Below, in pieces: positions 1 to 45,446 of a DNA stretch of 64,000 bases (within the stretch, counting starts at the first letter, position 1; every line of letters starts with the position of its first letter). This DNA comes from an uncultured Chloroflexia bacterium. Lineage in GTDB: Bacteria; Chloroflexota; Anaerolineae; Anaerolineales; DRKV01. The position numbers and the translations under genes were made by a program. A model generated the notes under the pieces. That model had not been told where the DNA came from, did not search any database, and saw only the letters and a list, made by a program, of their open reading frames with translations. The DNA is taken from NCBI GenBank assembly GCA_963824065.1, contig CAWGNX010000002.1, positions 488,794-552,793 on the forward strand, read 5' to 3'.

Positions 1-2579
1 CGCTCGTCCTGCTTGTGAATGTGACCCAGGATGCGCCGGTAGAGCAGGCCTTCGATCAGGTGGTCCTTGACGTGGACAGAATACGTGCGCAGGCTCTCCT
101 GCTCGTCCAGGCCGGCCAGATCACCCTCCATCCGTTTATAGAGGTCGGCCGCCAGCGACAAAGCCAGGGGTGTGCGCCCAACCATGTTGATCACCTGCAT
201 GGCAGCCGTTTCTTCGGGCAGGCCGCGCGCCTGCAGTAACGCGACCGCATCTTCGATAGACAGCTCGCGCAGCTCCAGGGTCTTGGACGCATAATCCCAC
301 GGGATTTTGGCGCGCCCCGAAATCAGGACCACAAACCGCGGCACCAAGTCCCACAGAGAAAGCAAGAACTGGTACAGCTCCTGCAAGTATTCGCGGTTGT
401 GGTAGAGCAGTTCTTCAAATGTATCCAGTACCAGCAGGAACGGCCGCTCGCCGTGGGTAATGTTGACGACCGCGCTCCGGAAGCGGCTGACATATCGCTC
501 CCAACGCCGCAGCCGGGTCTCGATCTCGCTCTTGATATACTTTTGCGCTGCCAGCTCCTGAGGCGCGAAAGCAAGCGCCTGGCTGGACAGCCACTCCTGG
601 CGCAGATCCTGCCACAGGGTTGAATCGAGCGGATACTGCACTTCGAGCTGGTCGATGGCTTCCAGCAGGATCGATACCGGATCCTGGATGTTCAGATCCT
701 GGCGGTTGAAATCAATATACACGTATGGAAATCGCGCGGCCTCGCTCACTTCGGCGTGCTCGAGAAGAAATTTAGCAATCAGGGTGGATTTGCCCATTCC
801 GCCCGGACCGTAGAGCTGGAGGGGTAAAAACTCACGCTGGCTCCCGGATGGGTCGGCTGCCTGCGGCTCATCCAGCAGACCTGCCTCACGCCGCAGCCAG
901 GCCAGCTCATCATACCGGCCGCGGAAAAAGTCACCCACCAGGATGCGGAAGGGGGCCAGCATGCGGGCACGGGCTGTCGCCCGGCGGACATCTTCGGTAG
1001 TAGGCATACCCTCCACGCAGCCTGCCAGCCAATCCTGCACCTGCAGGCTGGCTTCGAGCTGGTCGAGGGTCTGCTTCGCAAGGGAAGGGGCAAGCCCCTT
1101 AATATAGGCATCAAGCATTTCCTGGAGCGGGCTGGGGATGGAGGCGGGGTTATCAGCCAGGACCTGCTGCAAACGCCCATCCTTTGCCAGGCGCTGCAAA
1201 GTTTCCTTGCGCACCGGGTGGCGCAGCATCCAGACCGGACGTTCGAACACCCCGGTCATGACGGTGGAATCTGCGATCAGCTTTGGCAGGGCGCTTTGTT
1301 CGCCGGGGCTTAAGCCATGCCCGGCGCTGGTCAGGTCAGGCAGGTCGAAAAAAGCCCGTACGGCAGTTTTTTCACGCAGATCCCACAGCGCATCGTGGGC
1401 GGCGGGTTCGGCTGGGGCTGCCCGGCTGGATTTGATCTGGTTCAGGCGCTCTTGAAGCTGCTCCTTCGTTACCAAAGGCCGTTTTTGCCGTCCCGCCAGC
1501 TCTTCCAGCAAGCCCTTTTCGACCAGAAAATTAATAATGGCTGCCGCCGGTACGCCCTGGAACTGGGGATCGGGGCTCTCTGGAAGCTGACCGAGGTGCA
1601 GGGCAATCAGACCCCATTTGATATCAAACAACGGGGCGCCGGTATCACCAGGCCGGACCTCGACCTGGTAGAGCAGACGGCTGTGGCTTTGGTTCCACTG
1701 CAGCTCAGGCGAGGTTGCCAACACCAGGGCAAGGTTTTCACCGGGGGGTTGGATCAGCATTTGGAGCGGTTTGTTGCCCTCGCCGGGGGGTTCGACCGGT
1801 TCGAGGGTGAAAAAGCCGCGCGCCGCGCCATCCCCGCCCGTTTGCCGGCCCACCGGGCTGAGACCCGGTGCGCCTTGCAGGCGCAGCAAGATAAAATCAA
1901 GCTCGCCGCCGGTTGGTTCGACCTCCGGGCTGGAGGGGCTGGCTGCCACCTGCCAGTCGGAAGCCAGGCTGTATTCAATGCCAGGATGCAGCAGTTCTCC
2001 ATCTGGAGTGATGCGGTAATCAAAACGCACAATCACGTCGCCGGGCTTTACCTCACCTTTAACGACCGGCTCCAGCAGGCGGTAGGCGGTCAACACATGC
2101 GCCGGGCCGACCAGTAAGCCGGTGCCCGCGACCGGGTTGGCTTCTCCGCCCTGTTTCTTGTCCGGCCGCCGGTTGTCTCCTAACCGCCGGATTTCAATCT
2201 GGCAGACTTGAGTTTCCAGGCGTCCCAGCCGGGTGCGCCAGTGTCCCGTGTCGATGGTTAAACTGGCAAAGAATTCGGAATCAGGGAAACCGGCTGCGCT
2301 GGCTGCCGACAAATCCAGTTCATCGAGCAGGGCCATGAGCTGGGGGTCGTCCGGACGCGCGGCGCGCAGGGCATTCACCAGCATCAGGGCCATATCACGC
2401 TGGTCGAGGGTCTGCACCAGCCGTGAGACGTCTGTTACCAGGTTACCGCTTTCCGTGATGGCAAACAGGTTGACGTCCATGTATTGGAGCAGGAAATCCG
2501 CCAGTTCCTGGCGGGATGAGAAAGCCTTCAGCAGGTAGTCGTTGACCAGCTTGAGCTGGATCGATTTCAAGATGCCCAT
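1..2579 (-). CDS. EAD (death-like adaptor) + degenerate trypsin-like domain + NB-ARC/STAND P-loop NTPase; 3' end runs off the left edge of the window
   Basis: My hand translation of the minus strand from ATG 2579 stays open to base 1. It is absent from the ORF track because there is no stop in the window. N-terminus MGILKSIQLKLVNDYLLKAF...LVNALRAARP resembles the N-termini of the two upstream genes. Trypsin-fold motifs: GTGLLVGPAHVLTAYRLL, ELDFILLRL, RPGDTGAPLFD. NTPase motifs: Walker A YGPGGMGKSTL, Walker B FLLVLDTFEE, VVLISGR, GRTPLAL. Confidence 0.75.
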   Translation of the reverse strand, partial: MGILKSIQLKLVNDYLLKAFSSRQELADFLLQYMDVNLFAITESGNLVTDVSRLVQTLDQRDMALMLVNALRAARPDDPQLMALLDELDLSAASAAGFPDSEFFASLTIDTGHWRTRLGRLETQVCQIEIRRLGDNRRPDKKQGGEANPVAGTGLLVGPAHVLTAYRLLEPVVKGEVKPGDVIVRFDYRITPDGELLHPGIEYSLASDWQVAASPSSPEVEPTGGELDFILLRLQGAPGLSPVGRQTGGDGAARGFFTLEPVEPPGEGNKPLQMLIQPPGENLALVLATSPELQWNQSHSRLLYQVEVRPGDTGAPLFDIKWGLIALHLGQLPESPDPQFQGVPAAAIINFLVEKGLLEELAGRQKRPLVTKEQLQERLNQIKSSRAAPAEPAAHDALWDLREKTAVRAFFDLPDLTSAGHGLSPGEQSALPKLIADSTVMTGVFERPVWMLRHPVRKETLQRLAKDGRLQQVLADNPASIPSPLQEMLDAYIKGLAPSLAKQTLDQLEASLQVQDWLAGCVEGMPTTEDVRRATARARMLAPFRILVGDFFRGRYDELAWLRREAGLLDEPQAADPSGSQREFLPLQLYGPGGMGKSTLIAKFLLEHAEVSEAARFPYVYIDFNRQDLNIQDPVSILLEAIDQLEVQYPLDSTLWQDLRQEWLSSQALAFAPQELAAQKYIKSEIETRLRRWERYVSRFRSAVVNITHGERPFLLVLDTFEELLYHNREYLQELYQFLLSLWDLVPRFVVLISGRAKIPWDYASKTLELRELSIEDAVALLQARGLPEETAAMQVINMVGRTPLALSLAADLYKRMEGDLAGLDEQESLRTYSVHVKDHLIEGLLYRRILGHIHKQDE

Positions 2580-2596
2580 ATTCGGTAGGCTCGCTT

Positions 2597-3679
2597 TCAA
2601 TTCCCTGGCAGCAGCGCCAGGGCACGCTCCATGACCAGCTCCATAATTTTTGCCAGGCGTTCTTCAACACTCAGGGTGGCGGGCAGCTCCTGGAATACCC
2701 CCTGTGCTTGCGCTTCGATCTGCGTCGAGTCGGCGATGATATTGGCCTGTTCGAAAAATTTCTCGAAATAGGATTTCACTTCGGGCTCATCGAAATACTG
2801 CAGGTCCTCGCTGTGGACGAAGATCTTGACATCCGGCGTCAACCGGCCGAGCAGACTCGGGTAATCGAGCAGCACCAGGCGCACTTCCCGCAAACGCAGG
2901 GTTTTAATACCCTGGATGAGCTTAAAGACAAAGTCGCGCGTTTCCGGGCGCAGGTCGGGATGGTCAAAACCATCCAGCACGATCCAGGCCCGGCTGCCGT
3001 CCAGGTTGATTTTTTTCACCAGCCAGTCAAACAGCTCGCGCACGTACTGCTCGCCCATGTTCTGCGGGGCAGGTATGGGCTCGGTGGGTGGCAGGGCCAG
3101 GTCAGAGTCGATCCGGCGCGCCAGGTCGTTGGGGTAGTAGGTTGAAGGAATTTCATCCGCCAGAGGAATATAAGACAGCTTGTGACCGTATTTTTCGGCG
3201 ATCTCGTATACAAGGAAGTAAGAATGCGATTTCCCTGATTTGGGCGGCCCATTCACTACCAGGAAGCGTTTTTTACTCTTGAATAAATCTTCGAGCTTGT
3301 CGCGATAGCTGACCCGGTTGATGAATGGAATGCTTCCGGCGACCAGGCAGGCTTTGAACGGATCGGTCACCACCAGGCCTACTTCATCATCGATCAGGTT
3401 GTTGCGCATATCCTGCAAGATTGTCTGGAGCACCTGGTTGCCGGCTTGCTTGGGATCGTTGATGATCGCATCCAGCAGGACATCGGCGCGGTTGTAATAC
3501 TGGTTGATCAGCTCGCTGACGCGTTTATCCAGAGCTTGTCCGGGGGCGATATTGGCTGGCACCAGGCCCAGGCGCGTATCCACCAGCAGCTCGAAGTCAG
3601 GGATCGTCTGGTAAGCAAAGCTGAGCATGGACAGCAGGTTCTGGCGTTGGTTTAAGGTCAGGCTTTTTCCCATATTCAT
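2597..3679 (-). CDS. EAD (death-like adaptor) fused to a small P-loop NTPase
   Basis: 360-aa ORF. N-terminal helical module (NQRQNLLSMLSFAYQTIPDFELLVDTRLG...DAIINDPKQ) follows the same pattern as its neighbours. Walker A VVNGPPKSGKSHS, Walker B AWIVLDGFDH. It lies 12 nt after the upstream gene and 17 nt before the downstream gene. Confidence 0.75.
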   Translation of the reverse strand: MNMGKSLTLNQRQNLLSMLSFAYQTIPDFELLVDTRLGLVPANIAPGQALDKRVSELINQYYNRADVLLDAIINDPKQAGNQVLQTILQDMRNNLIDDEVGLVVTDPFKACLVAGSIPFINRVSYRDKLEDLFKSKKRFLVVNGPPKSGKSHSYFLVYEIAEKYGHKLSYIPLADEIPSTYYPNDLARRIDSDLALPPTEPIPAPQNMGEQYVRELFDWLVKKINLDGSRAWIVLDGFDHPDLRPETRDFVFKLIQGIKTLRLREVRLVLLDYPSLLGRLTPDVKIFVHSEDLQYFDEPEVKSYFEKFFEQANIIADSTQIEAQAQGVFQELPATLSVEERLAKIMELVMERALALLPGN

Positions 3680-3691
3680 TCTTCCCCAGTG

Positions 3692-4793
3692 CTAATCTTC
3701 TTCATCTGGCGTGCCCAATTCGGAAGTGAGGTCATTTTTTTCCAAGTAATTGTAAATCAGGTGGATGGGAATGCCCTGGTTGTACTCTGCCGGGTGCAGC
3801 TCCGAATAGTTCGGATCACCGGCATGGTGCAGCGCGACCAGTTTCCAGTTGATGTTAAAACATGGCGAGCCGGATGAGCCCTTGAGGGTGTTGGTGGCAT
3901 ACCGCAGGCGAGTGTGGTTGCTGTTGTACGCCAGACTGCCCTCGGTATCCAGGCCCAGCTTGAGGTAGTCGCCTTCCGGGTGCTGGAGGATGAGCAGCGG
4001 GTCACCGGGCTGGAGCTCGAGCTCGTCACCGGTCAGGGCGATGTAGCCGCGCGGGGGAGCCTTGTCCTCGATGACCTTGCCGACCTTATCGCTGCCCGGG
4101 CTGCCTTTGAGTTTCACCAGGGAGAAATCCAGCTCATCCGGTTTGGGCACGGCATCTTTAGGAGAGCCCTTCTTATCGGCGGCGCTGTATTTGCTTTCCG
4201 CTTTCTTCCATTCTTCCGCCAGCTTGTAGGTTACACCCGGGTTCAGAGTAACCCCATCCTCCAGGCGCTTGTAGTCGAAACGTACCAGGACCTCCGCCGG
4301 ATTGGCCATTTTTTTATCCAGCCATTCCATGACGTGGTAGTTGGTTAATGATTTTGTCATTCGCCACCAGGAAGCCGGTGCCGTAAGCCAAATCCCCGGT
4401 ATTTAGCTTGATCTCGATCCGGCAGATGCGCGGTTCGAGCATACCCAGGTTGCTGCGCCAGGATGCGACGTCTAAAAATCCTTTGCCAGCTTTGACCACC
4501 AGCTCCAGCTCGGTCTTTTTGACCGGCGTCAGATCGAACTCCTGGGCAAATTCCTGCAGTGCCGCCACCCCGGGCCGCGACTCACGCGCAGCGTTGATCA
4601 ACTGGACTGTCCAGCCCTGTGATTCGGCCGCGCGCACAACGTAGTAGATGTCCGTTTCTAGGGCATTGGTTGTGGCAATGGCATCCAAAGAGCGACCCAA
4701 ACGGACATCGAGCATCATCTCGAACTGCACCCGGGCTGGAAAAGCCTGTTTCAAAATTTCAATCAACTCGGATTTTTGATCCTCAACCAGCAT
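3692..4793 (-). CDS. EAD (death-like adaptor) fused to trypsin-like serine protease; frame broken once (ORFs 4314..4793 and 3692..4360)
   Basis: N-terminus SELIEILKQAFPARVQFEMMLDVRLGRSLDAIA...QGW...AARESRP. Protease motifs: GTGFLVANDK | LTNYHV (His), ELDFSLVKL (Asp), GSSGSPCF (Ser). The two ORFs join if one A of the A-run at 4352-4355 is removed (gac aaa [a] tca tta acc aac tac cac). AAGGAG RBS lies upstream of ATG 4793. Confidence 0.7.
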
Positions 4794-6462: not shown

Positions 6463-9400
6463 TCACAGCTGGAAATCATCCAGCTGCATGGATCGGGCAC
6501 GCTGCTCGGCGGCTTCGAAAGCGGCCGGCTCCATTTCTGCGGCGAGCTCGGTCAGCAGGGCTTGCATGCGGTTGCGCACTTCATACCAGGTATTGACGTG
6601 CCCGCTGACAAATGCCGCGATCACGACAGCCTGTTCGCGATCTCCGTGGACCCCGAATAGATTGGCTGCGCCGCTCAAGACCAGCAGCGTAAGGCCATTG
6701 TGCCAGACGTTGCGCGATGCTTCCAGCGCCTCCTTCAGCCATTCCAGAGCTTCACCATATTCCCCCAACCCGGTGGCTGCCCGGCCGATGCCATACATCG
6801 CATAAGCCGCGCCCCATTGATGGCCCACTGCCTGTGCCCGCTCCAGGCTGAGCAAAAACTGCTTGTGGGCGCGCGCGTAATCCCCGGTCTGCAGTGCCAG
6901 GTCACCCAAACCGCGGTGGAAAAAGGTGTAACCATTGCGGTCGTTGACCTGCTCGAACAACGGCAGAGCGCGGTCATAGGCCTGGTATGCTTGTTTGGTA
7001 TCGCCTGTCACCCGGTAATATTCGCCCAGCTCCCACACGCTCCAGGCCTCGCCGAACACATCGCCAGATTGGCGGCAGTATTCCAGACTCTGCATACGGG
7101 TCTCGAACGCCCGCGGCAGGTCTCCGGCGCGTAAGTGCCTCGTAGCTTTCCTTTGAAAGCACGCGCGCCGCCAGCCAGGTATGCCCGCTCTGGGCGTAGG
7201 TATCGCTCATGGCCCGGTAGTGGGTGAAAGCTTCGGGATACTCACCCAGCTCCAGGTGCAGGTCGCCGATCTGGAAGTGGATATCATTGGCAATGATCCA
7301 ATCTCCGGCGTTGACGAGTTTCTCCTGGGCGTTTTCCCAGGCTTCGATCGCCTGGCGGAAACGGTCCTGGAAGCGACGCAGGTTCCCAAGGGTGCGCAGG
7401 GCGTGCCCGGATTCGCGCATGTCACCCAGGCGGTTGAACAGCTCGAATGATTCGGTGCAGATCAAATCGCACTCATCCATTTCGGCTTCACTGACGAAAT
7501 TCAGCTCGTAAAGCTGTCCGAGCATGATCAGGGCAAATGCCAAGTCCCACTGGCGGTTTTCCTGGCGAAATTGGGGGACGAGTTCCTGCAAGGCTGCCCG
7601 CCCGGCGGGCAGGTCCACCAGGCGCCCATAAAGATAGCACAGCATCACCCGCCAGAAGCACAGGTTTGTGCGCATAGCCAGTGTTTCAGAGCGTTCCCAG
7701 GCTCTTTTCAGCGGTTCGATGTTGGGCGGCGGCAGCATGCCAAACGCCTCGAAGCGCACGGGGTAGCCGTTTTTGTAGAAGGCACCTTCAGCGGTGTAAA
7801 CGATGGCGATGGCGCGTTTATCTTCTTCTTCCTGGGGATCATCCGGCAGGATGGACTGGACGGCTTGCAGCAGCGGCATCAGCTCCGAGGCGCGCGAGCG
7901 CGATTCGCAGTAACGGAAGACTCCTGGCAGCATCCAGTAGATGATAATTTCATACCGGCCCTGTTCCGCCAGCCACATCCAGGCGATCCGGATGTGATCG
8001 AATTCGTTGCGGATAGCCGTAAAGGCCTCCTTTTGATCTGGACTGCGGATGGCAATGTTCTGTTCTGCCAGGAAATCGGCGAAGTATGTGGCATGTCGGA
8101 AGCGCACATCTTCCCAAACTGACCGGTCTTCCTGAAGTTTTTCATAAGCATACTGGCGCAGCAGTTCATGGATGACAAACCGGCCTTCCGACGTGCGCTG
8201 CAGCCAGGATTTATGCACCAGTCCCAACAGGGACTTGAGCGGGGCGTCGCTGATCGAGCGCGCCGCTTCCAGGCTGAAACTTCCCAAAAATACCGACATC
8301 CGCGTCACGGCTTCCTGCTCAGCCGTGAGTGAGCAAATTCCAGGAGCTGTTGAATACGGCACGGATGCTGCGCTGCCGGTCGGGCATGTCGTCCCAATCT
8401 GTTTCGAGAAAATCCAGGCTGCGCCGGATTTCACTGGCAACTTCGTCCAGCCGCAGCATTTCGAGCCAGGCAGTTGCCAGCTCAATGCCGAGCGGCATAC
8501 CCTGAACCAAATCGCAAATTTCAACCGCACCGCGCACATTTTCGGCCGTCACAGCGGAAATCGGGTTGGAAACGCCGGGCGCATTGCTCAAATAATTTAA
8601 GCGCGGAATACTCTTCAAGGCGCTGGTCAAGCTCCACCAGTCCGGATAGCTCAAACGCCTGGGGAACCCGCAGCCCTTCCAAAGGTAAACGAATTCGGAG
8701 TGCAGGTTCAGCCGCGCTCGGGAGGTGACCAGGATGCGGACGTGTTCCGTTTCAGCCAGCACCCGCCCGATCGCATGCACGCTTTCTTCATCCAGCAGGT
8801 GCTCGAAATTGTCCAGAACAAAGAGCATCCGGCGCGGTTTCAGGAACTCGATCAGCTGGTCGGTCTGGTTTTCCTGGCTGCCCTGGAAACTGAAATTGAT
8901 CAGCTCGTCGATTGCTGGCAGGATCGCGCCGGTGGATGAAAGCGGCGCCAGGGGGACAAACCACACGCCGTCCTGCAAGCCTTCCGGGAAGACCGCCGCC
9001 AGGCGGGTGGCGGCCTCGATCGCCAGGCGGGTCTTGCCGCTCCCTCCAGGCCCCAGGATGGTAACCAGGCGATGGCTGTCCTGACTGCACAGCAGGGATT
9101 CCAGAGCGGCTAATTCGTCCACCCGGCCAACAAAATCGGTGGTCTGGGGGGGCAGGTTGAACAGCCGGCTGCCAGCCTGGCCCGCAGTTGGCTCCACCGG
9201 ATGTGCGGCTGGCGCCGCGACTGCCTGGGCTGGGGCAGCCTGAACGGGCGGCGCGGCCGGTAAGGGAAACGGAGGCTGCGGAAGGGCGGCCTCAACAATA
9301 TCCGGTGGCGCCAGGGTGCGCGCCTGGATGGCCTCGTACAGCCCGGTGGTGGCCTCTTCTGGGGCTATTTTCAGCTCCCTTTTCAGGGTGCGGGTGAGCT

Positions 9401-10085
9401 CCTGGTACTGGCGCAAAGCGGCTGCCTGCTGCCCAGACCAGGCGTAGAGCTGCATCAGCTGGCGGTGAGCTGGCTCGTGCAGGGGATCAAGGGCCAGCCA
9501 GCGGCGGGCGTACTCGCTGGCGCGCTCGAAATTTCCCTCGCGCGTGTGCCAGATGATGAGATGCTGCAAAGCCTCTGCCAGCTTCTGGCGCAGGTTTTCG
9601 TTTTCAAAAAACTGCCATTCGTCATACGGGGCGCTGTCAGGCAGGCTGAACCCGGCCATAAAATCCCCGCCGTAAAGTTCAACAGCCCGCGTGAGGGCCG
9701 AGAAGCAGGAGGGACACAGCGGAGTTGAGCCTTCTCGCAGACTGTGACCATGGGAAATTGCCAGATCCACCAGTCGGTGGAAAATGGCCACGTCAGTCGT
9801 CACCCCGGCCTCGTCCGCGATCCGCACCTGATCGCCTTCGAGATCTACAAATTCCTCCCCGATGGTCTGCCGCAGGCGGGAAATATCTCGGCGCAGGTTG
9901 GCTCTGGCACCGCTCTGGTCATAATCGGGCCAAAAAAGGGTCGCCAGAGCATCCCGGCTGTGCGGCCGGTCGGTGACGACCAGGTATGCCAGCAGGGCAA
10001 GCACTTTTTTTCGCCCTAGATTGACGGCTTCGCCTTCACTCAGAATACGCGGTGCGCCCAGTAAATTTACATGCAGCTGTACCAT
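6463..10085 (-). CDS. SARP/BTAD-type activator domain + NB-ARC ATPase + TPR repeats (AfsR-like STAND regulator); frame broken twice
   Basis: ORF 8319..10085 carries LLGAPRILSEGEAV...LLAYLVV...FWPD (winged-helix/BTAD) and Walker A ILGPGGSGKTRLA. It continues in ORF 6974..8539 (LTAEQEAVTRMSVFLGSFSLEAA..., TPR-like) and ORF 6463..7095 (TPR-like). The shifts are near 8320-8330 and about 7130. Confidence 0.7.
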
Positions 10086-32188: not shown

Positions 32189-33653
32189 ATGATCAGGAAT
32201 TTATTGATGCCTACCTTTGATAATCAAGCAAAGCGCAGCGCTGTGCCTGGCACTCAGACACTCTTTGAGAAAATCTGGAACAGCCACGTTGTAGCGCAGG
32301 AGAATGGCGCACCTGCGATCTTATATATCGATTTGCACCTCGTTCACGAAGTGACCTCCCCCCAGGCGTTCTCCGGCCTGCGCGAGCGCGGGCTTAAAGT
32401 GCGCCGCCCGGATCGCACCATTGCTACGATGGATCATTCAATCCCGACGACCGGGCTGGATTTGCCCATCGTAGACGAAATGGCAGCCAAACAGCTCCGC
32501 CAATTGGAGCTGAACTGCACAGATTTTGGCATTCCCCTCTATGACATGCATAATGATCAAAGGGGGATTGTGCATGTCATTGGTCCTGAACTGGGATTAA
32601 CTCAACCCGGAATGACCATTGTGTGTGGTGATTCGCATACCGCCACGCATGGAGCGTTTGGCGCCCTGGCATTCGGTATCGGCACCAGTGAGGTCGAGCA
32701 TGTGCTGGCGACCCAATGTTTGCTGCAGAACAAGCCGCAGACGTTTGCGGTTAACTTTGAAGGAAGCCTTGGCAGAGGTGTCACCGCCAAGGATATGATC
32801 CTGGCGCTCATTGCCGAGATTGGCATTGGGGGCGGCACCGGGATGGTGCTCGAATACCGCGGCTCGGCTGTCCGAGGGCTCGCGATGGAAGCCCGGATGA
32901 CTTTGTGCAACATGTCCATTGAGGCTGGCGCCCGGGCGGGCATGATTGCGCCGGATGACACGACAATTGCCTATCTTGCCGGACGGGAATTTGTACCTAA
33001 AGGCGCTGCCTGGGATGCGGCGGTTTCAGCCTGGAGGTCCCTTAAATCCGAATTCCGAAGCAAGCTTCGACCGGGAAATCACGCTGAATGTGTCAAACCT
33101 TCAGCCGATGATCTCCTACGGGACCAATCCGGGCATGAGCATCGCCATTGACCAGATCGTTCCCGACCCGGACCTGGAACCCAATTCGGCCCGGCGTACA
33201 GCTTTGAAGAAAGCCGTAGAATACATGGACCTGCGTCCCGGTCAGCCGCTGCTCTCCCACCCGATCGATGTGGTTTTTATTGGCAGCTGCACCAATTCAC
33301 GCATTTCCGACCTGCGCGAGGCCGCCAATCTGTTAAAGGGACACAAGGTTGCTCCTGGGGTGCGGATGCTGGTCGTTCCGGGTTCAGAACAGATCCGCCG
33401 CCAGGCTGAAAACGAAGGTTTAGACCAAATCTTCATCGAAGCAGGCGCCGAATGGCGGCGAGCAGGCTGCAGTATGTGTATTGCGATGAACGGCGACCAG
33501 CTCCAACCGGGCCAGTATGCCGTCAGCACCAGCAACCGCAATTTTGAAGGCCGGCAGGGTAAAGGCGGTCGCACGTTTCTTGCCAGCCCGCTCACCGCCA
33601 TCGCCAGCGCAGTTAGCGGGCGGGTATCCGATCCGCGCCAATTGATGGATTAA
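32189..33653 (+). CDS. leuC: 3-isopropylmalate dehydratase large subunit; one frameshift near 33050
   Basis: [31 protein letters not shown], then ISYGTNPGM...[11 protein letters not shown]...CSMCIAMN in ORF 32946..33653. The join is restored by removing one base in tccgaattccgaa. Confidence 0.9.
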
Positions 33654-39879: not shown

Positions 39880-40449
39880 ATGAGCCCGCTTGATTCCCCC
39901 ACCAAACAAGACCTGCTTGACCTGCTGCTGGACTGTTTTCCGCGCCCGGAAGACATGGAAATGCTGCTCGAGCTGCGCCTGGATAAAAATTATGCTGCCC
40001 TGGCGCACACCGGCAGCTACGAAACTGACCTGTTCCGCGTGCTCCAGGCAGCGGATGCCCAGGGCTGGCTCGAAGATTTGCTGCAGGCGGCCTGCGAGGC
40101 GCGCCCTTCCCGGCAGGATTTGCAGGCCACGGTTGCCGCCTACCTGGCGCAGCAAAACCAACTGGTTGAAACACCCGATCGAATTAGCCAGGATGATGTC
40201 CCCACTCAGCCTGCACCCGATCAAGAGATCCCCAAGCTGGCCCGCATGCTGCATAAGGGAATGACCGGCGAGGATGTTAAAACCCTCCAGGCCCGGCTGT
40301 ACGAGTTTGGCTTCCTGAAATTGGTGGATGGCATCTTTGGGATCGACACTGAATATGCCGTCAAAGAATTCCAGCGCCAGAACTCGATTGCCCCGGACGG
40401 CATCGTTGGGCCGCAGACCTGGGCCAGGTTGTGGCAAGGGAGCGGTTGA
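39880..40449 (+). CDS. EAD (death-like adaptor) fused to a PG_binding_1 peptidoglycan-binding domain
   Basis: KQDLLDLLLDCFPRPEDMEMLLELRLDKNYAALA...ETDLFRVLQAADAQGWLEDLLQAACEARP aligns residue for residue with the N-terminus of the 4793 protease. C-terminus: GMTGEDVKTLQARLYEFGF...VDGIFGIDTEYAVKEFQRQNSIAPDGIVGPQTWARL. Confidence 0.7.
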   Translation: MSPLDSPTKQDLLDLLLDCFPRPEDMEMLLELRLDKNYAALAHTGSYETDLFRVLQAADAQGWLEDLLQAACEARPSRQDLQATVAAYLAQQNQLVETPDRISQDDVPTQPAPDQEIPKLARMLHKGMTGEDVKTLQARLYEFGFLKLVDGIFGIDTEYAVKEFQRQNSIAPDGIVGPQTWARLWQGSG

Positions 40450-40577: not shown

Positions 40578-43500
40578 TTAGGCAAACGCCGGGGGTACCG
40601 GGAAATTGTTGTTCATCAGTGCCTGGTTGGTGGCCTGCAGGCCGCCAATCGAGGCGATTCCGTGGTCGATGTAGTTGTCCGGGTCCACCGGGCTCACCAG
40701 TGCGGTATTCTCAAACCCGGTGCGCTTGCGGAAGCTGCGGTCCGCGCCGGCGTTCATCAGGTCATTGGCGATGGGCGGGTTGTTGTGATCGCTGGGCGGG
40801 TTGATCTGGTCCCACAGCAAGCCGTGGACGATCTCATGCGCCAGGGTTTCCCCGAGCATGCGCCCGTACACTTCGATGGCGAAGTTTTTCAGCTTCGGAT
40901 CGGTCATGGTGGCTGATTCGAGATCAATCAGCAGCGATTGGGTCTCCTCATCGATATCCGATGCGCCGGGATCATCATACCCTCCGGGGAAGATATCGAT
41001 GGTTTCATTGAACAAGCCCAGACCGCCGGGTGCATTGGTGCGCCCGAGCAGGCCTTCGCTGCCCGCCGGGGGATCGCCCCGCAGGGTAGCCACCATCACG
41101 TTGGCTGCCGGGACATGCCCCGGAACTGCCTCCGAGAAGCCGCCAAACTCCCAGATGGTGCGGGCATTGGCAGTTCCCAGGATACTCTCGCACGCTTCCT
41201 TGGCTTTGGCGACCACGCTGTTTTTGACGTCATCCAGCTTGAGCTTGGCCAGGGCCGCGTCAAAGACCGCCGCATCTTCAACCACCCGCACGAACTGCGG
41301 GATGGAAAGCTGGACTTTGACGCTTGCCAGCTGAGTTCCGCCGGAGTCAAACACCGCGAAGTCTGCTGCGGTTTTTCCAGGGCGTACGCCGCGCACCCGG
41401 GTCCGCCCGCTGGACGGGTTATCGATGGTGATCGTGCCGGGTTCAGCGGGTGACCAGCGGAAGGTGGATCCCGCGGGTGCATTGCGCACCGTGGCTTCTA
41501 AATCGATTACGCCGGTTTTATCCTGCCGGGAGGCGTTAAACGAGCGGTTATCCGCCGTGTTGGTCGGCGTAGGCAGGATGATAGAGGGGCGGGTGGTGTC
41601 CTCGGCGGCCTCGCCTTTGGCTTCCACTTCCACTTTCTCACCGCCGGGGCGGGCAACCTTGATATTGGCTTTGTTCTGCCCGGCAGTTTCTGCCAGGCTC
41701 TGCACGTCCGAGGTGGTCATCGGTTTGGCAGCTTCACCCGAGCCCCCGCCGATCATGCTCTTGATGGCGTTGTTGGTGAGCTCCTGGGCTTGCTGGTCAT
41801 TGATCAGGCCGTTGTCCTTGGCGGTTTTGATCGTGCGCATGGCTTTGTCGATATCGCGAGCCATCTTCGCTTGCAGCGCCAGGTCGGCCGCTTTGCCACC
41901 GAAGAACTGGGCAGTGTCCAGGGCTCCCTGGAGGGCTTCCAGGGCATTCTTCTGGGTGCCTTCCAGCCCGGTGATGTCCTTGAAGATATTGGGCGTTCCC
42001 AGTAGCTGCAGGGCGGCTGCCAGCCCGGTCGGATCAGGCGCAGCGGGTGCGGTCTGCATATTGATGATCGGAGCCGGGAAATCCTTGGCGGTCAGGTTGG
42101 GCGGTTCGGCGCGGCGGCTTTCGGTGCTGACTGGCAAAATCGCAGTCGGCGAGTCGGGGATGGGGGATTCCTCCCAGCGCCAGAAGCGTTCCTCTTCTTT
42201 GAACTCGCAGGAGTTGCAGGCGCCCATCACCGATTCGGCATACACTCCATTGGTGGGCAGTGCAATCCGCATGGGCTCGATGGGGGTGTTGGGCTGGTAG
42301 TGCTCGAGCAGGTCGATGGGGTTTTCCACATCCTGGCGGAAGGTGGGGTCGAGGTGGAAGCCGCGCGACACGGGCATCACCAGGCAGTTGCCCACGATGC
42401 CGATCAGAACATTATCTACGACCGAAGCCACGCTCTTTCCGCCGCTGTTAGGTGCTTCGAAACCATCCAGCAGCATATATCGCCGCTCTTCACTCATCTC
42501 CCGCCACAGGTGGTGGTGGGCATCTTCGATGTGCTCATTGAGGAAGTCCAGCAGGTTGCGGGCGAGTTCTTTATCTTCTTCGCGCGGGTTGCGCAGCTCC
42601 TGGCGGTTGAGCGGGGTGAAAATACGCACATCATCAAAACCTTTGATGTCGTTTTGAATGCGGGCACTGCGGAACAGGTAGTCTGACGAGTACTTGGTGC
42701 GGTACTGCATGGTGCCGCTTTCCACAATGACGCGCGAGTTCGCTGGCAGAAGCTGGAACAACCAGGGTCCCAGCCGGGAAATGCCGCTGATTTTGATGAA
42801 CTTGATGTCAGCCCGGACGAGGGGGGGTAAAGCACTCCCCAGACGCACGGATACATACAGGGGGCGGTCGTTCACGAAATCGGACAGCAAGGTGGCATCG
42901 ATGGGCAGTTCCACTTCACTGTTGTCGTTGCGCACCGCAAACACGCGCATGTTTTGCACAAAGCGTTCCGCAATCTGCGGGCCAAGCTGCTCCAGGAACA
43001 CCCGGTCTTTAAACTGCTGGTTCTTGAGGTGGTTTTTGTAAAATTCTTCGGCGTTGATAAAGGGCAGGATGTTGCCCAACCAGGTCCAGGTGCCGGCGTC
43101 AAAATCATCATCCTTGTCGCGCGGTCGGGCCAGCTCGAAACGCATGTACAGATCACCGTCCAGGTAATCCAGGGTTTGGTCGGCGTAGCGCCCCACGGGC
43201 AGGTCAGAGCCAACATAGTTATTTTCGATCCGTTCCAGGGCATCGAAACCTTTGCCCAGGCTGCGCGGCACGCCGCTGCGCAGCGTGTTGCGCCAGCGCA
43301 GGGTTTTATCGCGGTTGAAACGGCTCATCAAGAGCGGCACGAACAGGCATTCCTGCACATCCACCAGGCGCTGGCGCACGATCAAGTGGCGCAGCACTTC
43401 GAAATACTGCATTGTGATGGCATGGCAGTGATTGTAGTTTGCCAGGGTTTCGGTCGTTGCCGTGACCCGCTCCCCCTGGCGCATGGTCTGGACAACGGTC

Positions 43501-45446
43501 GAGCGCTGGGAGCGCACGGAGGAAGCTGACTGGATGGTGCGGTCGCGCAGCTGATTGAGAGCGCTGGCCGCGGTATTGCGCGAGCTGTTCTGGAAGGCCG
43601 AACTGCTGGCACTGGAGGTACCGCCCCCAATGCCCAGCAAGCCCCCCAGGAAGCCTGCTCCACCGAAGATGCCACCCGCAATTCCCAAGCCGCCGCCGAA
43701 CGAGCCGGTCGAAGAGTGCGAGCCGCCGCTGACGCTTTCGCTCACGGTGCCGCGCACCACTTCATTGATATCCCGGTCACGCGAGATTGCGGCATCCAGC
43801 TGTTCCGTTTCCACGATCGCTTCTGTGCGGGCTGCGGATTCACGCCGCTCCCAATCAACGATGGCGATCTGTTTTTTCTGCCCAGGGGCGAGCGGCAGGC
43901 TGTACAGCAGGTTGCCCATGGAGTAACCATCTGCGACCCATTCCTGTTTGAAGTGCAGGATGTGCCCGTGTGCGATGTTGCAGGCCTGGTAAATAGTGGG
44001 TTCGTCGTCCCAGTCTACCGGGGCATCGCAGGTTAGGCGGGAGCGGTCAGGTTTTAACTGGATGTGCTTGGCGAGCAGGCGCAGCAGGTCGCCGTGGACC
44101 GTCAGGTTTGCCGCCGCGGCGATTTTGGTGAGGGTAAATCCATCGGGGTCGCGCGCCAGAGTCTTGAGCACCCTGGCGTCGATCATATCGGTCGTAAAGC
44201 CGGTCTGAGCCGAGGCTGCCACCGAGCGCAAGGAGACATCTGGGGTTGAGGCGTCGGCGGTGCTGAAAGCGGCAGTCGCCACAGCCTTGGAGCCTTGTAA
44301 AACGGCCGCAATCTGGCGGATATCAATTTTGTTCGGCTCCTCAAGGGTCAGACCTTTGATGTCGGGCTGCGTGGTGCGCAGGACATAGGAAAATGAAAAC
44401 TCTTCCAGGGTTCGGTTGGGACGGGTGAAATCGACACATTTTCCCGCGCCGGGGTCGCTGGAGTAAACCCCATCGCCGCGAGCCAGGTCGACCATGTCGG
44501 GATCGCGCGGCACCAGATCGGTTTCTTTCCCGCAGCCGCAGTCATCCTCATCATCATCGCACATACAGTCATCCACATCGACGACCAGGATGACCGATTC
44601 TGGGAAGATCCCACCGTCCTCGAGGTGGATGGGTACCGAAACGGGCTCTTCTTTGAGCGATACATCGCCATGCGCGGCGCTGAAACTGCCGACCGGGTAA
44701 GGACCAGAGAAATATCCGGAGGCATCGGTCTGCACCACAATCATGGCACGGAAATCTGCCGCCTCAGGTTGCGGAGCCTGAGCTCCCCAGATCACGACCT
44801 GGCGGTTGGCAATCTGGACTTTGCCAGCCCGGTCGATCACTCGCCCGCGCAGCTTGGTGGGGCGGCCAAAAGCAGGGTCTTCATTGGGTAAGGTTTCCGC
44901 GTACCGCCGCGGTTCCACCCGGAAGCGCAGCTGATCGCCTAGCTTTTCGCCGGGAACGCTGGCGCTAAACAGGGTTTCTCCATCTGGCGCAGAGACCCGG
45001 AAGGCCACATCGCCCTGGATGTCGGCGGGGTTGGGAAAGGTCAGGGTCACGTCGCCGCTTTTGGGCAGCTCCAGGCTGATCTGGGCGCCCACCCACAGGG
45101 TGATCTGGTCATCGTCCTCGCCGGGCAGGCGTTCCCGCCGGGTGAAGGTAGCAGACAGACGGTGGCTGGTGTAGTCGTCCGCACCAGACGGGGAGGTAAG
45201 GATCACTTTGACGACCTGCGGAGGCAGCTCGTCGCCGCTTTCTTTTTCTCCGGCAACGACCCGGTCGGCAAAGCGGCTGACCATCGCTTCGCTGACCCCG
45301 GGCACTGCCGCCAGCTCAGCAACGGTGCGGAAGCGGCCCACCGTGGAGCGGTAGGTGATCAGACGAGAAGCCAGGCCCGCGCCGATCCCCGGCAGGGAGG
45401 CAAGCTCAGCGGCACTGGCTGTGTTAAGATTAATTTTTTGCTGCAT
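40578..45446 (-). CDS. 1622-aa multidomain protein of unknown function (HhH N-terminus, prealbumin-like domain, Cys/Asp cluster, glycine zipper, Ig-like domain, C-terminal HExxH)
   Basis: Uninterrupted ORF with AAAGGAAG RBS. INLNTASAAELASLPGIGAGLASRLI (ComEA-type HhH). GRVIDRAGKVQIANRQVVIW...TDASGYFSG. DVDDCMCDDDEDDCGCG. GGGLGIAGGIFGGAGFLGGLLGIGGG (about 43600-43735). LAHEIVHGLLW (HEIVH encoded at 40824-40838). Confidence 0.85.
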   Translation of the reverse strand: MQQKINLNTASAAELASLPGIGAGLASRLITYRSTVGRFRTVAELAAVPGVSEAMVSRFADRVVAGEKESGDELPPQVVKVILTSPSGADDYTSHRLSATFTRRERLPGEDDDQITLWVGAQISLELPKSGDVTLTFPNPADIQGDVAFRVSAPDGETLFSASVPGEKLGDQLRFRVEPRRYAETLPNEDPAFGRPTKLRGRVIDRAGKVQIANRQVVIWGAQAPQPEAADFRAMIVVQTDASGYFSGPYPVGSFSAAHGDVSLKEEPVSVPIHLEDGGIFPESVILVVDVDDCMCDDDEDDCGCGKETDLVPRDPDMVDLARGDGVYSSDPGAGKCVDFTRPNRTLEEFSFSYVLRTTQPDIKGLTLEEPNKIDIRQIAAVLQGSKAVATAAFSTADASTPDVSLRSVAASAQTGFTTDMIDARVLKTLARDPDGFTLTKIAAAANLTVHGDLLRLLAKHIQLKPDRSRLTCDAPVDWDDEPTIYQACNIAHGHILHFKQEWVADGYSMGNLLYSLPLAPGQKKQIAIVDWERRESAARTEAIVETEQLDAAISRDRDINEVVRGTVSESVSGGSHSSTGSFGGGLGIAGGIFGGAGFLGGLLGIGGGTSSASSSAFQNSSRNTAASALNQLRDRTIQSASSVRSQRSTVVQTMRQGERVTATTETLANYNHCHAITMQYFEVLRHLIVRQRLVDVQECLFVPLLMSRFNRDKTLRWRNTLRSGVPRSLGKGFDALERIENNYVGSDLPVGRYADQTLDYLDGDLYMRFELARPRDKDDDFDAGTWTWLGNILPFINAEEFYKNHLKNQQFKDRVFLEQLGPQIAERFVQNMRVFAVRNDNSEVELPIDATLLSDFVNDRPLYVSVRLGSALPPLVRADIKFIKISGISRLGPWLFQLLPANSRVIVESGTMQYRTKYSSDYLFRSARIQNDIKGFDDVRIFTPLNRQELRNPREEDKELARNLLDFLNEHIEDAHHHLWREMSEERRYMLLDGFEAPNSGGKSVASVVDNVLIGIVGNCLVMPVSRGFHLDPTFRQDVENPIDLLEHYQPNTPIEPMRIALPTNGVYAESVMGACNSCEFKEEERFWRWEESPIPDSPTAILPVSTESRRAEPPNLTAKDFPAPIINMQTAPAAPDPTGLAAALQLLGTPNIFKDITGLEGTQKNALEALQGALDTAQFFGGKAADLALQAKMARDIDKAMRTIKTAKDNGLINDQQAQELTNNAIKSMIGGGSGEAAKPMTTSDVQSLAETAGQNKANIKVARPGGEKVEVEAKGEAAEDTTRPSIILPTPTNTADNRSFNASRQDKTGVIDLEATVRNAPAGSTFRWSPAEPGTITIDNPSSGRTRVRGVRPGKTAADFAVFDSGGTQLASVKVQLSIPQFVRVVEDAAVFDAALAKLKLDDVKNSVVAKAKEACESILGTANARTIWEFGGFSEAVPGHVPAANVMVATLRGDPPAGSEGLLGRTNAPGGLGLFNETIDIFPGGYDDPGASDIDEETQSLLIDLESATMTDPKLKNFAIEVYGRMLGETLAHEIVHGLLWDQINPPSDHNNPPIANDLMNAGADRSFRKRTGFENTALVSPVDPDNYIDHGIASIGGLQATNQALMNNNFPVPPAFA

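Follow-up and report, generated by a model that had tools for sequence, protein, structure and literature searches.

Why would a predicted signalling NTPase carry a protease domain that has lost its catalytic residues, when the gene for an apparently intact enzyme of the same kind lies close by? This question is raised by the left end of a 64,000-nt stretch of DNA from an uncultured Chloroflexia bacterium (contig CAWGNX010000002.1, positions 488,794 to 552,793), hereafter called the window. Here, three genes, designated A, B and C, are tightly packed on the minus strand at positions 1..4793, only 12 and 17 nt apart. All three encode proteins with an EAD1 adaptor, to which gene A adds a trypsin-like protease, gene B a small P-loop NTPase, and gene C a degenerate ("dead") trypsin-fold domain followed by a STAND NTPase. 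The initial annotation of this DNA had noticed the dead domain and its neighbour, and had left out gene B, the third EAD1 protein of the operon. We found that the region very probably constitutes a three-gene STAND cassette networked by EAD1, in which the dead domain of gene C comes from an old lineage of STAND-fused domains.

In the main text of their study, Kaur et al. (2020; eLife e52696, PMC7159879) defined EAD1 and the coupling principle, by which EADs are proposed to act as homotypic coupling adaptors. The presence of the same EAD1 on the products of genes A, B and C corresponds to the sign used by this principle, namely an EAD shared between an NTPase core and an adjacent effector.

Gene C encodes a trypsin-fold domain without the catalytic His and Ser

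Gene C is read from 2579 to 1 as a frame of 859 codons without interruption, and its protein exits the window at the left edge. In this 5′ part of the gene (1..2579, minus strand), Pfam searches delineated an EAD1 adaptor, a trypsin-fold domain and a STAND NTPase, in that order. The adaptor (residues 7-88; 2316..2561) scored 24.6 bits against Pfam PF19955 (cut-off 24.2) and gave an E-value of 4e-20 with a custom hidden Markov model (HMM); in the structural model described below, it is all-helical (helices over residues 6-87), with a predicted local distance difference test score (pLDDT) above 90. The pre-NTPase region and the STAND NTPase occupy residues 371-859 (1..1469), as delimited by phmmer and motifs. 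AAA_16 (38.1 bits, cut-off 32.6) and, more weakly, NACHT, NB-ARC and NPHP3_N were recognised by Pfam at residues 585-780, and the Walker A (GPGGMGKS, 786..809) and Walker B (LLVLDTFEE) motifs are intact, as in STAND-class P-loop NTPases. A weak FxSxx_TPR match was also found at residues 742-815.

The intervening domain (residues ~104-363; 1491..2270) scored only 24.3 bits against Pfam Trypsin_2 (PF13365; residues 152-327), under the gathering cut-off of 27.6. Its homology to the Trypsin_2 family is nevertheless secure, judging by its E-values of 6e-48 to gene A and 2e-69 to the family HMM. The first of these values comes from a BLASTP alignment of residues 101-360 with the frameshift-repaired product of gene A (34% identity over 264 columns).

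To locate the catalytic triad, we relied on sequence and profile alignments rather than on residue-level superposition. A HMMER search of 1.84 billion representative proteins returned 1683 relatives (best E-value 5e-36, domain identity 31-44%), the 150 best of which were aligned with MAFFT; 148 sequences, including repaired gene A, cover all three triad columns. The His-Asp-Ser (H-D-S) triad is found in 125 of these 148 sequences, whereas gene C reads R-D-T. The His column is occupied by Arg167 (CGC, 2079..2081), the triad Asp is kept as Asp228 (GAT, 1896..1898), and the Ser column is occupied by Thr313 (ACC, 1641..1643), within GDTGAP where the family has GSSGSP. The codons and the MAFFT alignment thus bear out the three assignments that had initially been made by eye, and the pairs of segments on which these had been based (LTAYRL/LTNYHV, ELDFILLRL/ELDFSLVKL and GDTGAP/GSSGSP) were reproduced by BLASTP. 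The possibility that a proper alignment would bring another His or Ser to the catalytic positions of gene C failed, as none was placed there.

The claim that two of the three triad residues are lost holds for both replacements, but it understates the loss: gene C differs at 27 of the 80 well-conserved positions of the family, and these differences are concentrated in active-site motifs. Thus, NYHV is changed to AYRL, GSSGSPC to GDTGAPL, HHxGDP to HLGQLP and YNQGIP to FQGVP, and the QHP motif is eroded as well. Residues of the fold core (GTG, RFDY, W209, LD..LLR, RG, G.G.P.F and ALH) are retained.

The retained fold, which had been proposed from sequence signatures, was confirmed by modelling. 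Residues 1-370 were modelled by AlphaFold2 at a mean pLDDT of 87.9, and the chymotrypsin fold is kept; the top Foldseek matches in the PDB are all chymotrypsin-fold serine proteases (FAM111A, Esp/V8, HtrA1 and DegS; E-values 3e-12 to 1e-10). Target-normalised TM-scores for FAM111A, Esp/V8 and HtrA/DegS range from 0.54 to 0.72 at 12-17% identity. All of these are active enzymes, several of them crystallised as Ser->Ala mutants, unlike the domain of gene C. A sequence search of the PDB with gene C gave no match. Pfam and the model therefore agree with the original placement of a trypsin-fold domain lacking His and Ser between the EAD1 adaptor and the STAND NTPase. From these alignments and the model, we classify the domain as a fold homologue of chymotrypsin-fold (PA clan) peptidases and not as an enzyme of the family.

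Two further features of the domain were recorded. A basic insertion, RRLGDNRRPDKKQGGEANPVA, is specific to gene C (residues ~131-150, 2120..2189); it belongs to the first barrel of the trypsin fold and was modelled at a low pLDDT of about 61-65. Replacement of the catalytic His by Arg was seen again in three or more further members of the family (library representatives P0001, P0013 and P0061, with RDS, RDA and RDP, respectively), which are scattered in the neighbour-joining tree; there it may reflect the single-transition path CAY->CGY.

Genes A and B complete the operon

Gene A (3692..4793, minus strand) encodes an EAD1 (PF19955, 57.7 bits) and, after it, a trypsin-like protease (Trypsin_2, 41.7 bits) in which the H-D-S triad is intact, with His at 4334..4336, Asp at 4127..4129 and Ser at 3872..3874 by codon reading. 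As sequenced, the gene is split into two open reading frames (ORFs), an issue addressed below; once the frameshift is repaired, its sequence is that of a catalytically competent protease. The earlier designation of this neighbour as an active protease is right as to the triad and presumes that the split is an assembly error.

Gene B (2597..3679, minus strand; 360 aa) was identified by Pfam and by homologues that take the corresponding place in the operons of 11 other loci. Its EAD1 scores 23.6 bits, slightly under the Pfam cut-off of 24.2, and is followed by a small P-loop NTPase with Walker A (GPPKSGKS, 3227..3250) and Walker B (WIVLDGFD, 2963..2986) motifs and weak AAA_22/NPHP3_N matches.

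The three-gene cassette is conserved in other phyla

We then examined gene neighbourhoods by a locus scan with one genome per species and a query alignment of 10 sequences, which yielded 80 loci with relatives, annotated with custom HMMs and Pfam. The full cassette, comprising an EAD1-protease with H-D-S, a gene B homologue and a STAND protein homologous to residues 371-859 of gene C, was present in 11 of the 80 loci, with the genes on one strand and mostly in the same order. These loci belong to Deinococcota (Trueperaceae), Acidobacteriota, Chloroflexota, Actinomycetota, Pseudomonadota (Paraburkholderia) and Planctomycetota. The STAND part of gene C matches the first ~500 residues of the STAND proteins in these cassettes, with phmmer E-values of 1.8e-114 for the nearest cassette (L017) and of 1e-83 to 1e-48 for most others; identity to L017 is 52% for A, 40% for B and 42% for the STAND part (494 aa). 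The stand-alone EAD1-protease retains H-D-S in all 11 cassettes.

The gene B family, made of EAD1 and a P-loop NTPase of ~260 aa, is a constant companion of this STAND type (e.g., L017:11309-12373 and 10 other loci); in a few members (L056, L076) the Walker A Lys is replaced by Arg. Some components also occur fused. STAND, EAD1, dead trypsin and small NTPase are combined in one chain in P0036 and P0093, and apparently also in L067, with its STAND gene in several ORFs; a gene B-type NTPase directly follows the dead trypsin domain in P0036, P0093, P0142 and L067. Moreover, pairs of active and dead EAD1-trypsin proteins are found without the cassette STAND in L035, L048 and L055/L073. In the last two, which are metagenome-assembled genomes (MAGs) of Pirellulaceae with a NucA-trypsin type of system (L055:2903-6676, L073:2083-5931), three genes are adjacent, one for an active EAD1-trypsin, one for a protein with two EAD1 domains and one for an EAD1-trypsin(YDG)-pYEATS protein, the double-EAD1 adaptor gene bridging the active/dead pair.

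The dead domain belongs to an old STAND-fused lineage

Is the dead domain a recent copy of the neighbouring protease? The trypsin domains fused to STAND proteins of the cassette family were compared for this purpose. They are degenerate in 15 of 17 relatives. Eleven of these relatives come from the best 150 library sequences, being those with the cassette STAND type, and read HNS, HDG, TDA, RDA, HDA, SDA, HNS, QNT, HDG, FDT and, in one case, HDS; those at the cassette loci read FGS, GGA, TGS, AES, D-P and, in one case, HDS. Against these 15 of 17 degenerate STAND-fused domains, every one of the 11 stand-alone partners is intact. The comparisons identify the dead domain as an old, probably maintained lineage that has mostly lost its triad, in many ways, and neither as a recent copy nor as an error. 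The suggested check of the triad in relatives thus speaks against a local sequence error.

Profile scores and phylogeny concur. The gene C domain scored 203.5 bits on an HMM of the STAND-fused domains vs 164.3 bits on an HMM of the active partners, while gene A scored 226 and 337 bits, respectively. In a neighbour-joining tree, one split brings gene C together with all 17 STAND-fused domains to the exclusion of the 37 others, and the sister group of gene C was purely STAND-fused in 80 of 100 bootstraps. The erosion of HHxGDP and YNQGIP in gene C is also typical of the STAND-fused lineage. The position of the module in gene C is unusual, as its N-terminal residues 3-357 align to residues 950-1271 of the STAND protein of L017 (25% identity, E-value 7e-22). 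On the strength of the HMM scores, the tree grouping and the lineage-typical motif erosion, we take the protease domains of genes A and C to be paralogues of ancient origin whose orthologues are two distinct components of the cassette, and not the products of a local duplication. The domain is accordingly a paralogue of the neighbouring protease, as had been proposed (34% identity, E-value 6e-48), with the reservation that the two belong to different lineages.

The open frames of the STAND-fused domains persist across phyla. For one pair of loci (L050/L072), the ratio of nonsynonymous to synonymous substitution rates (dN/dS) came to 0.29 in the dead domain, as compared with 0.28 in the NTPase and 0.21 in the active partner, at dS values of about 0.9-1.3, near saturation; the actinobacterial pair L041/L056 was saturated and uninformative. 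This single near-saturated pair points, not strongly, to purifying selection on the dead domain.

P0008 and P0125, which show the same order EAD1-trypsin-STAND, were considered as orthologues of gene C and rejected, as their STAND parts are unrelated to that of gene C. In these two proteins, where other STAND types follow the EAD1-trypsin module, H-D-S is intact.

The frameshift in gene A and the quality of the assembly

Gene A occurs in the window as two ORFs in different frames (4793..4314 and 4360..3692). Comparison of the frames locates a 1-nt insertion within 4343..4358 (GACAAAATCATTAACC), six codons ahead of the catalytic His. The initial alignment of gene C with 'GTGFLVANDK-LTNYHVM' was reproduced, but its dash conceals this insertion. 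Because the two halves are recorded publicly as separate proteins from one contig, the frameshift is present in the deposited assembly.

At least three further frameshifts were found in the 64-kb window. A regulator with BTAD (SARP-type), NB-ARC and TPR domains (6463..10085, minus strand) is distributed over three overlapping ORFs according to ORF and Pfam analysis, with one break at a 4-nt tandem duplication (CTCA/CTCA, 8318..8336) and the other near 7100-7150. Similarly, an aconitase-family gene (LeuC-like large subunit; 32189..33653, plus strand) lies in two ORFs, with Pfam Aconitase matches at 1-271 and 268-463; it is broken near 33044 by an apparent 1-nt insertion (GAT->GAAT). Given that other genes of the window are also frameshifted, an indel-prone assembly is the more economical account, and the frameshift in gene A is probably an assembly error. 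All errors seen in the window are indels and none are substitutions; such errors do not account for the 27 coordinated substitutions in gene C.

Programmed frameshifting was also considered for the gene A site and set aside, as there is no slippery heptamer and similar 1-nt and 4-nt indels occur in other genes of the window. In an Acidobacteriota MAG (L067:12074-13996), the cassette STAND gene itself lies in three ORFs, frameshifts in long genes being common in draft assemblies.

Possible roles of the dead domain

Taken together, the alignments, the model and the comparison across genomes lead us to regard the dead domain as a real, non-catalytic module of a predicted NLR-like conflict system. 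We propose that a trigger would lead to oligomerisation of the gene C NTPase, and hence to clustering of its EAD1 domains. The clustered EAD1 would then recruit protease A, and probably the gene B product, through homotypic EAD1 contacts, while the adjacent dead domain would pair with the catalytic domain of A or gate it, providing a docking or regulatory surface that decides when A is active. Protease A would be the sole catalytic protease of the system. This proposal draws on the EAD principle (PMC7159879) and on the oligomerisation-driven activation of proteases in Avs STAND proteins (bioRxiv 10.1101/2025.11.14.688446). The pairing of a dead with an active domain is recurrent across phyla, which fits such a partner role, and the comparative data make the role plausible. 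As a mechanism, docking to or regulation of protease A is put forward tentatively, with somewhat more chance of being wrong than right. For the cassette and the partner role taken as a whole, which we consider the best explanation, the chances appear about even.

Several observations weigh against this reading. The contact between the dead and active domains is predicted by analogy. H-D-S is kept in two STAND-fused domains (L038 and P0045), indicating that these domains are not always dead, and two cassette STAND proteins (L020 and L076) are devoid of any fused EAD1-trypsin module, so that the dead domain is dispensable. The module is N-terminal in gene C and C-terminal in all 17 relatives; its geometry is thus not conserved. 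Long-branch attraction may inflate the grouping of gene C in the neighbour-joining tree. With regard to the adaptors, the EAD1 of C shares only 28% identity with that of A (E-value 6e-8), its similarity to the EAD1 of B was undetectable by BLASTP, and it matches EAD1 domains of other genomes about equally well, unlike the pattern in which adjacent EADs are closest relatives. A close orthologue of gene C was absent from every collection searched, so that selection on this particular copy is not measurable; a word-indexed protein search with residues 1-400 gave nothing significant among 8000 candidates, and single-protein locus scans of genome and metagenome contigs gave no relative of the whole protein. 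Lastly, if the frameshift in gene A is genuine, the cassette is without a working protease in this organism.

A different way of using a dead domain would be to sense with it. The domain could be an integrated decoy, to which a protease inhibitor or a protease-targeting factor of an invader binds and thereby triggers the STAND protein, as plant NLRs do with their integrated decoys. Despite the loss of catalysis, the domain retains the fold, the GxxGxP turn and much of the cleft scaffold; the triad columns vary freely, as expected if binding alone matters, and the main text of Kaur et al. (2020) proposes that inactive enzymes with active counterparts may act as decoys. However, HHxGDP, YNQGIP and QHP, which are the best-conserved motifs among the active members, are eroded in the dead lineage, which makes it a poor mimic of the active site; in addition, sensing in STAND proteins is normally carried out by C-terminal repeats, and active/dead pairs exist without any STAND protein. 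We consider a decoy role unlikely. Much the same low probability applies to a peptide-binding function, in which the domain would present a substrate (e.g., the gene B product or another EAD1 protein) to A, or would act as a dominant-negative competitor that holds A off until activation. The fusions that place the dead domain immediately ahead of the small NTPase favour such a function, and for inactive trypsin domains the same main text suggests 'dominant-negative regulators or merely peptide-binding domains'. Both the substrate and the cleavage site are hypothetical, however, and the same data fit the docking model.

That the domain has no function, or that it still cleaves, is harder to reconcile with the data. 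A degenerating locus or a poor sequence could produce triad loss as mere damage, and the split genes (gene A, the BTAD-NB-ARC-TPR gene in three ORFs and the aconitase-family gene in two), together with the lack of a close orthologue of gene C for a selection test, are compatible with it. Nevertheless, the errors in the window are all indels, gene C remains open over 859 codons, the 27 coordinated substitutions spare the fold core and yield a high-pLDDT model, and 15 of 17 STAND-family relatives from other phyla share the degenerate state, with dN/dS of about 0.3 in one pair. Decay or artefact is thus largely refuted and very improbable. Threonine acts as the nucleophile in other protease folds, and residual catalysis by a non-canonical constellation, for instance with Thr313, could be imagined from the retention of Asp228 and of the GxxGxP oxyanion turn. 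The general base is gone, however, with His replaced by Arg; the neighbouring active-site motifs are eroded, and among relatives the His column holds H, T, R, S, Q, F, G, D or A and the Ser column S, G, A, T or P, with no conservation. We regard residual catalysis as extremely improbable.

Beyond the docking or regulatory role that we tentatively favour, a bolder formulation may be considered. The cassette would then be a phylum-spanning, three-component bacterial NLR-like system whose own protease is present on the sensor NTPase as a copy that is obligatorily dead. This copy would be either the activating heterodimer partner of the EAD1-protease encoded in trans, as a bacterial counterpart to the control of caspases by pseudo-caspases, or an integrated decoy protecting the protease from inhibitors encoded by invaders, with the small EAD1-NTPase as a helper. 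This formulation appears doubtful to us.

Comparison with known systems

The closest parallels are the EAD-coupled NTPase systems (Kaur, Burroughs, Iyer and Aravind, eLife 2020 e52696; 2021 e70394), which, as far as their main text describes them, share with the present locus the EAD1 on both core and adjacent effector, a trypsin-like effector and a STAND core. Inactive trypsin domains with active counterparts are already described there for EAD systems; these occupy the effector position of vWA-MoxR ternary systems, whereas our locus has neither vWA nor MoxR. The three-gene cassette with a STAND-fused dead trypsin domain was not found in the main text of Kaur et al., supplementary tables aside. 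In the NucA-trypsin 'System 3' of the 2020 study, as presented in its main text, a STAND protein bears an N-terminal bDLD2 and a trypsin domain, with EAD1-trypsin paralogues in the operon. Gene C has in common with it the order adaptor-trypsin-STAND NTPase and an EAD1-trypsin paralogue in the operon; however, the adaptor of System 3 is bDLD2, it has a NucA core and the main text does not state that the fused trypsin is inactive, while the locus of gene C has EAD1 and no NucA. L055 and L073 are of the System 3 type and also possess an active/dead EAD1-trypsin pair.

STAND proteins of the Avs2/Avs4 type also carry an N-terminal trypsin-like domain, which acts after oligomerisation and cleaves a partner encoded next door (bioRxiv 10.1101/2025.11.14.688446). 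An N-terminal trypsin-like domain on a STAND NTPase is thus common to both. The fused protease of Avs2/Avs4 is catalytically required, as the S151A mutation abolishes toxicity, whereas the copy in gene C is predicted to be dead and the active copy to act in trans by way of EAD1. No PADLOC model matched the STAND protein or the cassette beyond marginal hits (mad8 for the STAND protein).

Partnerships between dead and live proteases are known from other folds. The pseudo-caspase cFLIP is a paralogue that regulates caspase-8. The pseudoproteases CspC and CspA are reported to work with CspB in Clostridioides difficile (PMC6636752, PMC7200643). These systems share with gene C a dead paralogue beside an active protease of the same fold, but the folds differ (caspase and subtilisin), and the partnership or regulation demonstrated for cFLIP and the Csp proteins would apply to gene C by analogy.

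The novel elements are the cassette itself, its STAND-fused lineage with consistently dead domains, and the N-terminal position of the module in the window, whereas the concept of inactive partners is known (Kaur et al., 2020). Bacterial STAND and NLR-like systems are being mined as ancestors or analogues of innate immunity in animals and plants. In the cassette family, a dead protease sits on the sensor and the live enzyme would be provided in trans through a shared adaptor, unlike in Avs2/Avs4. Should the dead domain prove to dock, gate or guard the live protease, bacteria would provide a case of pseudo-protease control over a death or immune protease, together with a defined three-gene system for direct tests of the EAD principle and of inactive enzyme domains. 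It should be noted that computational work had already predicted the general phenomenon (Kaur et al., 2020); what is added is a specific cassette open to testing, and not a new concept.

A fourth EAD1 protein in the window

A fourth EAD1 protein is encoded 35 kb from the cassette (39880..40449, plus strand), as detected by the custom EAD1 HMM (E-value 3e-21) and by Pfam, which recognised EAD1 (58.6 bits) and a peptidoglycan-binding domain (PG_binding_1, 71.6 bits). By the EAD principle, this protein could be a further component recruited to the same core. It is adjoined by a gene for a 1622-aa protein (40578..45446, minus strand), otherwise without Pfam matches, with a ComEA-like helix-hairpin-helix (HHH_3) at its N-terminus and an HExxH-like motif, HEIVH, at its C-terminus.

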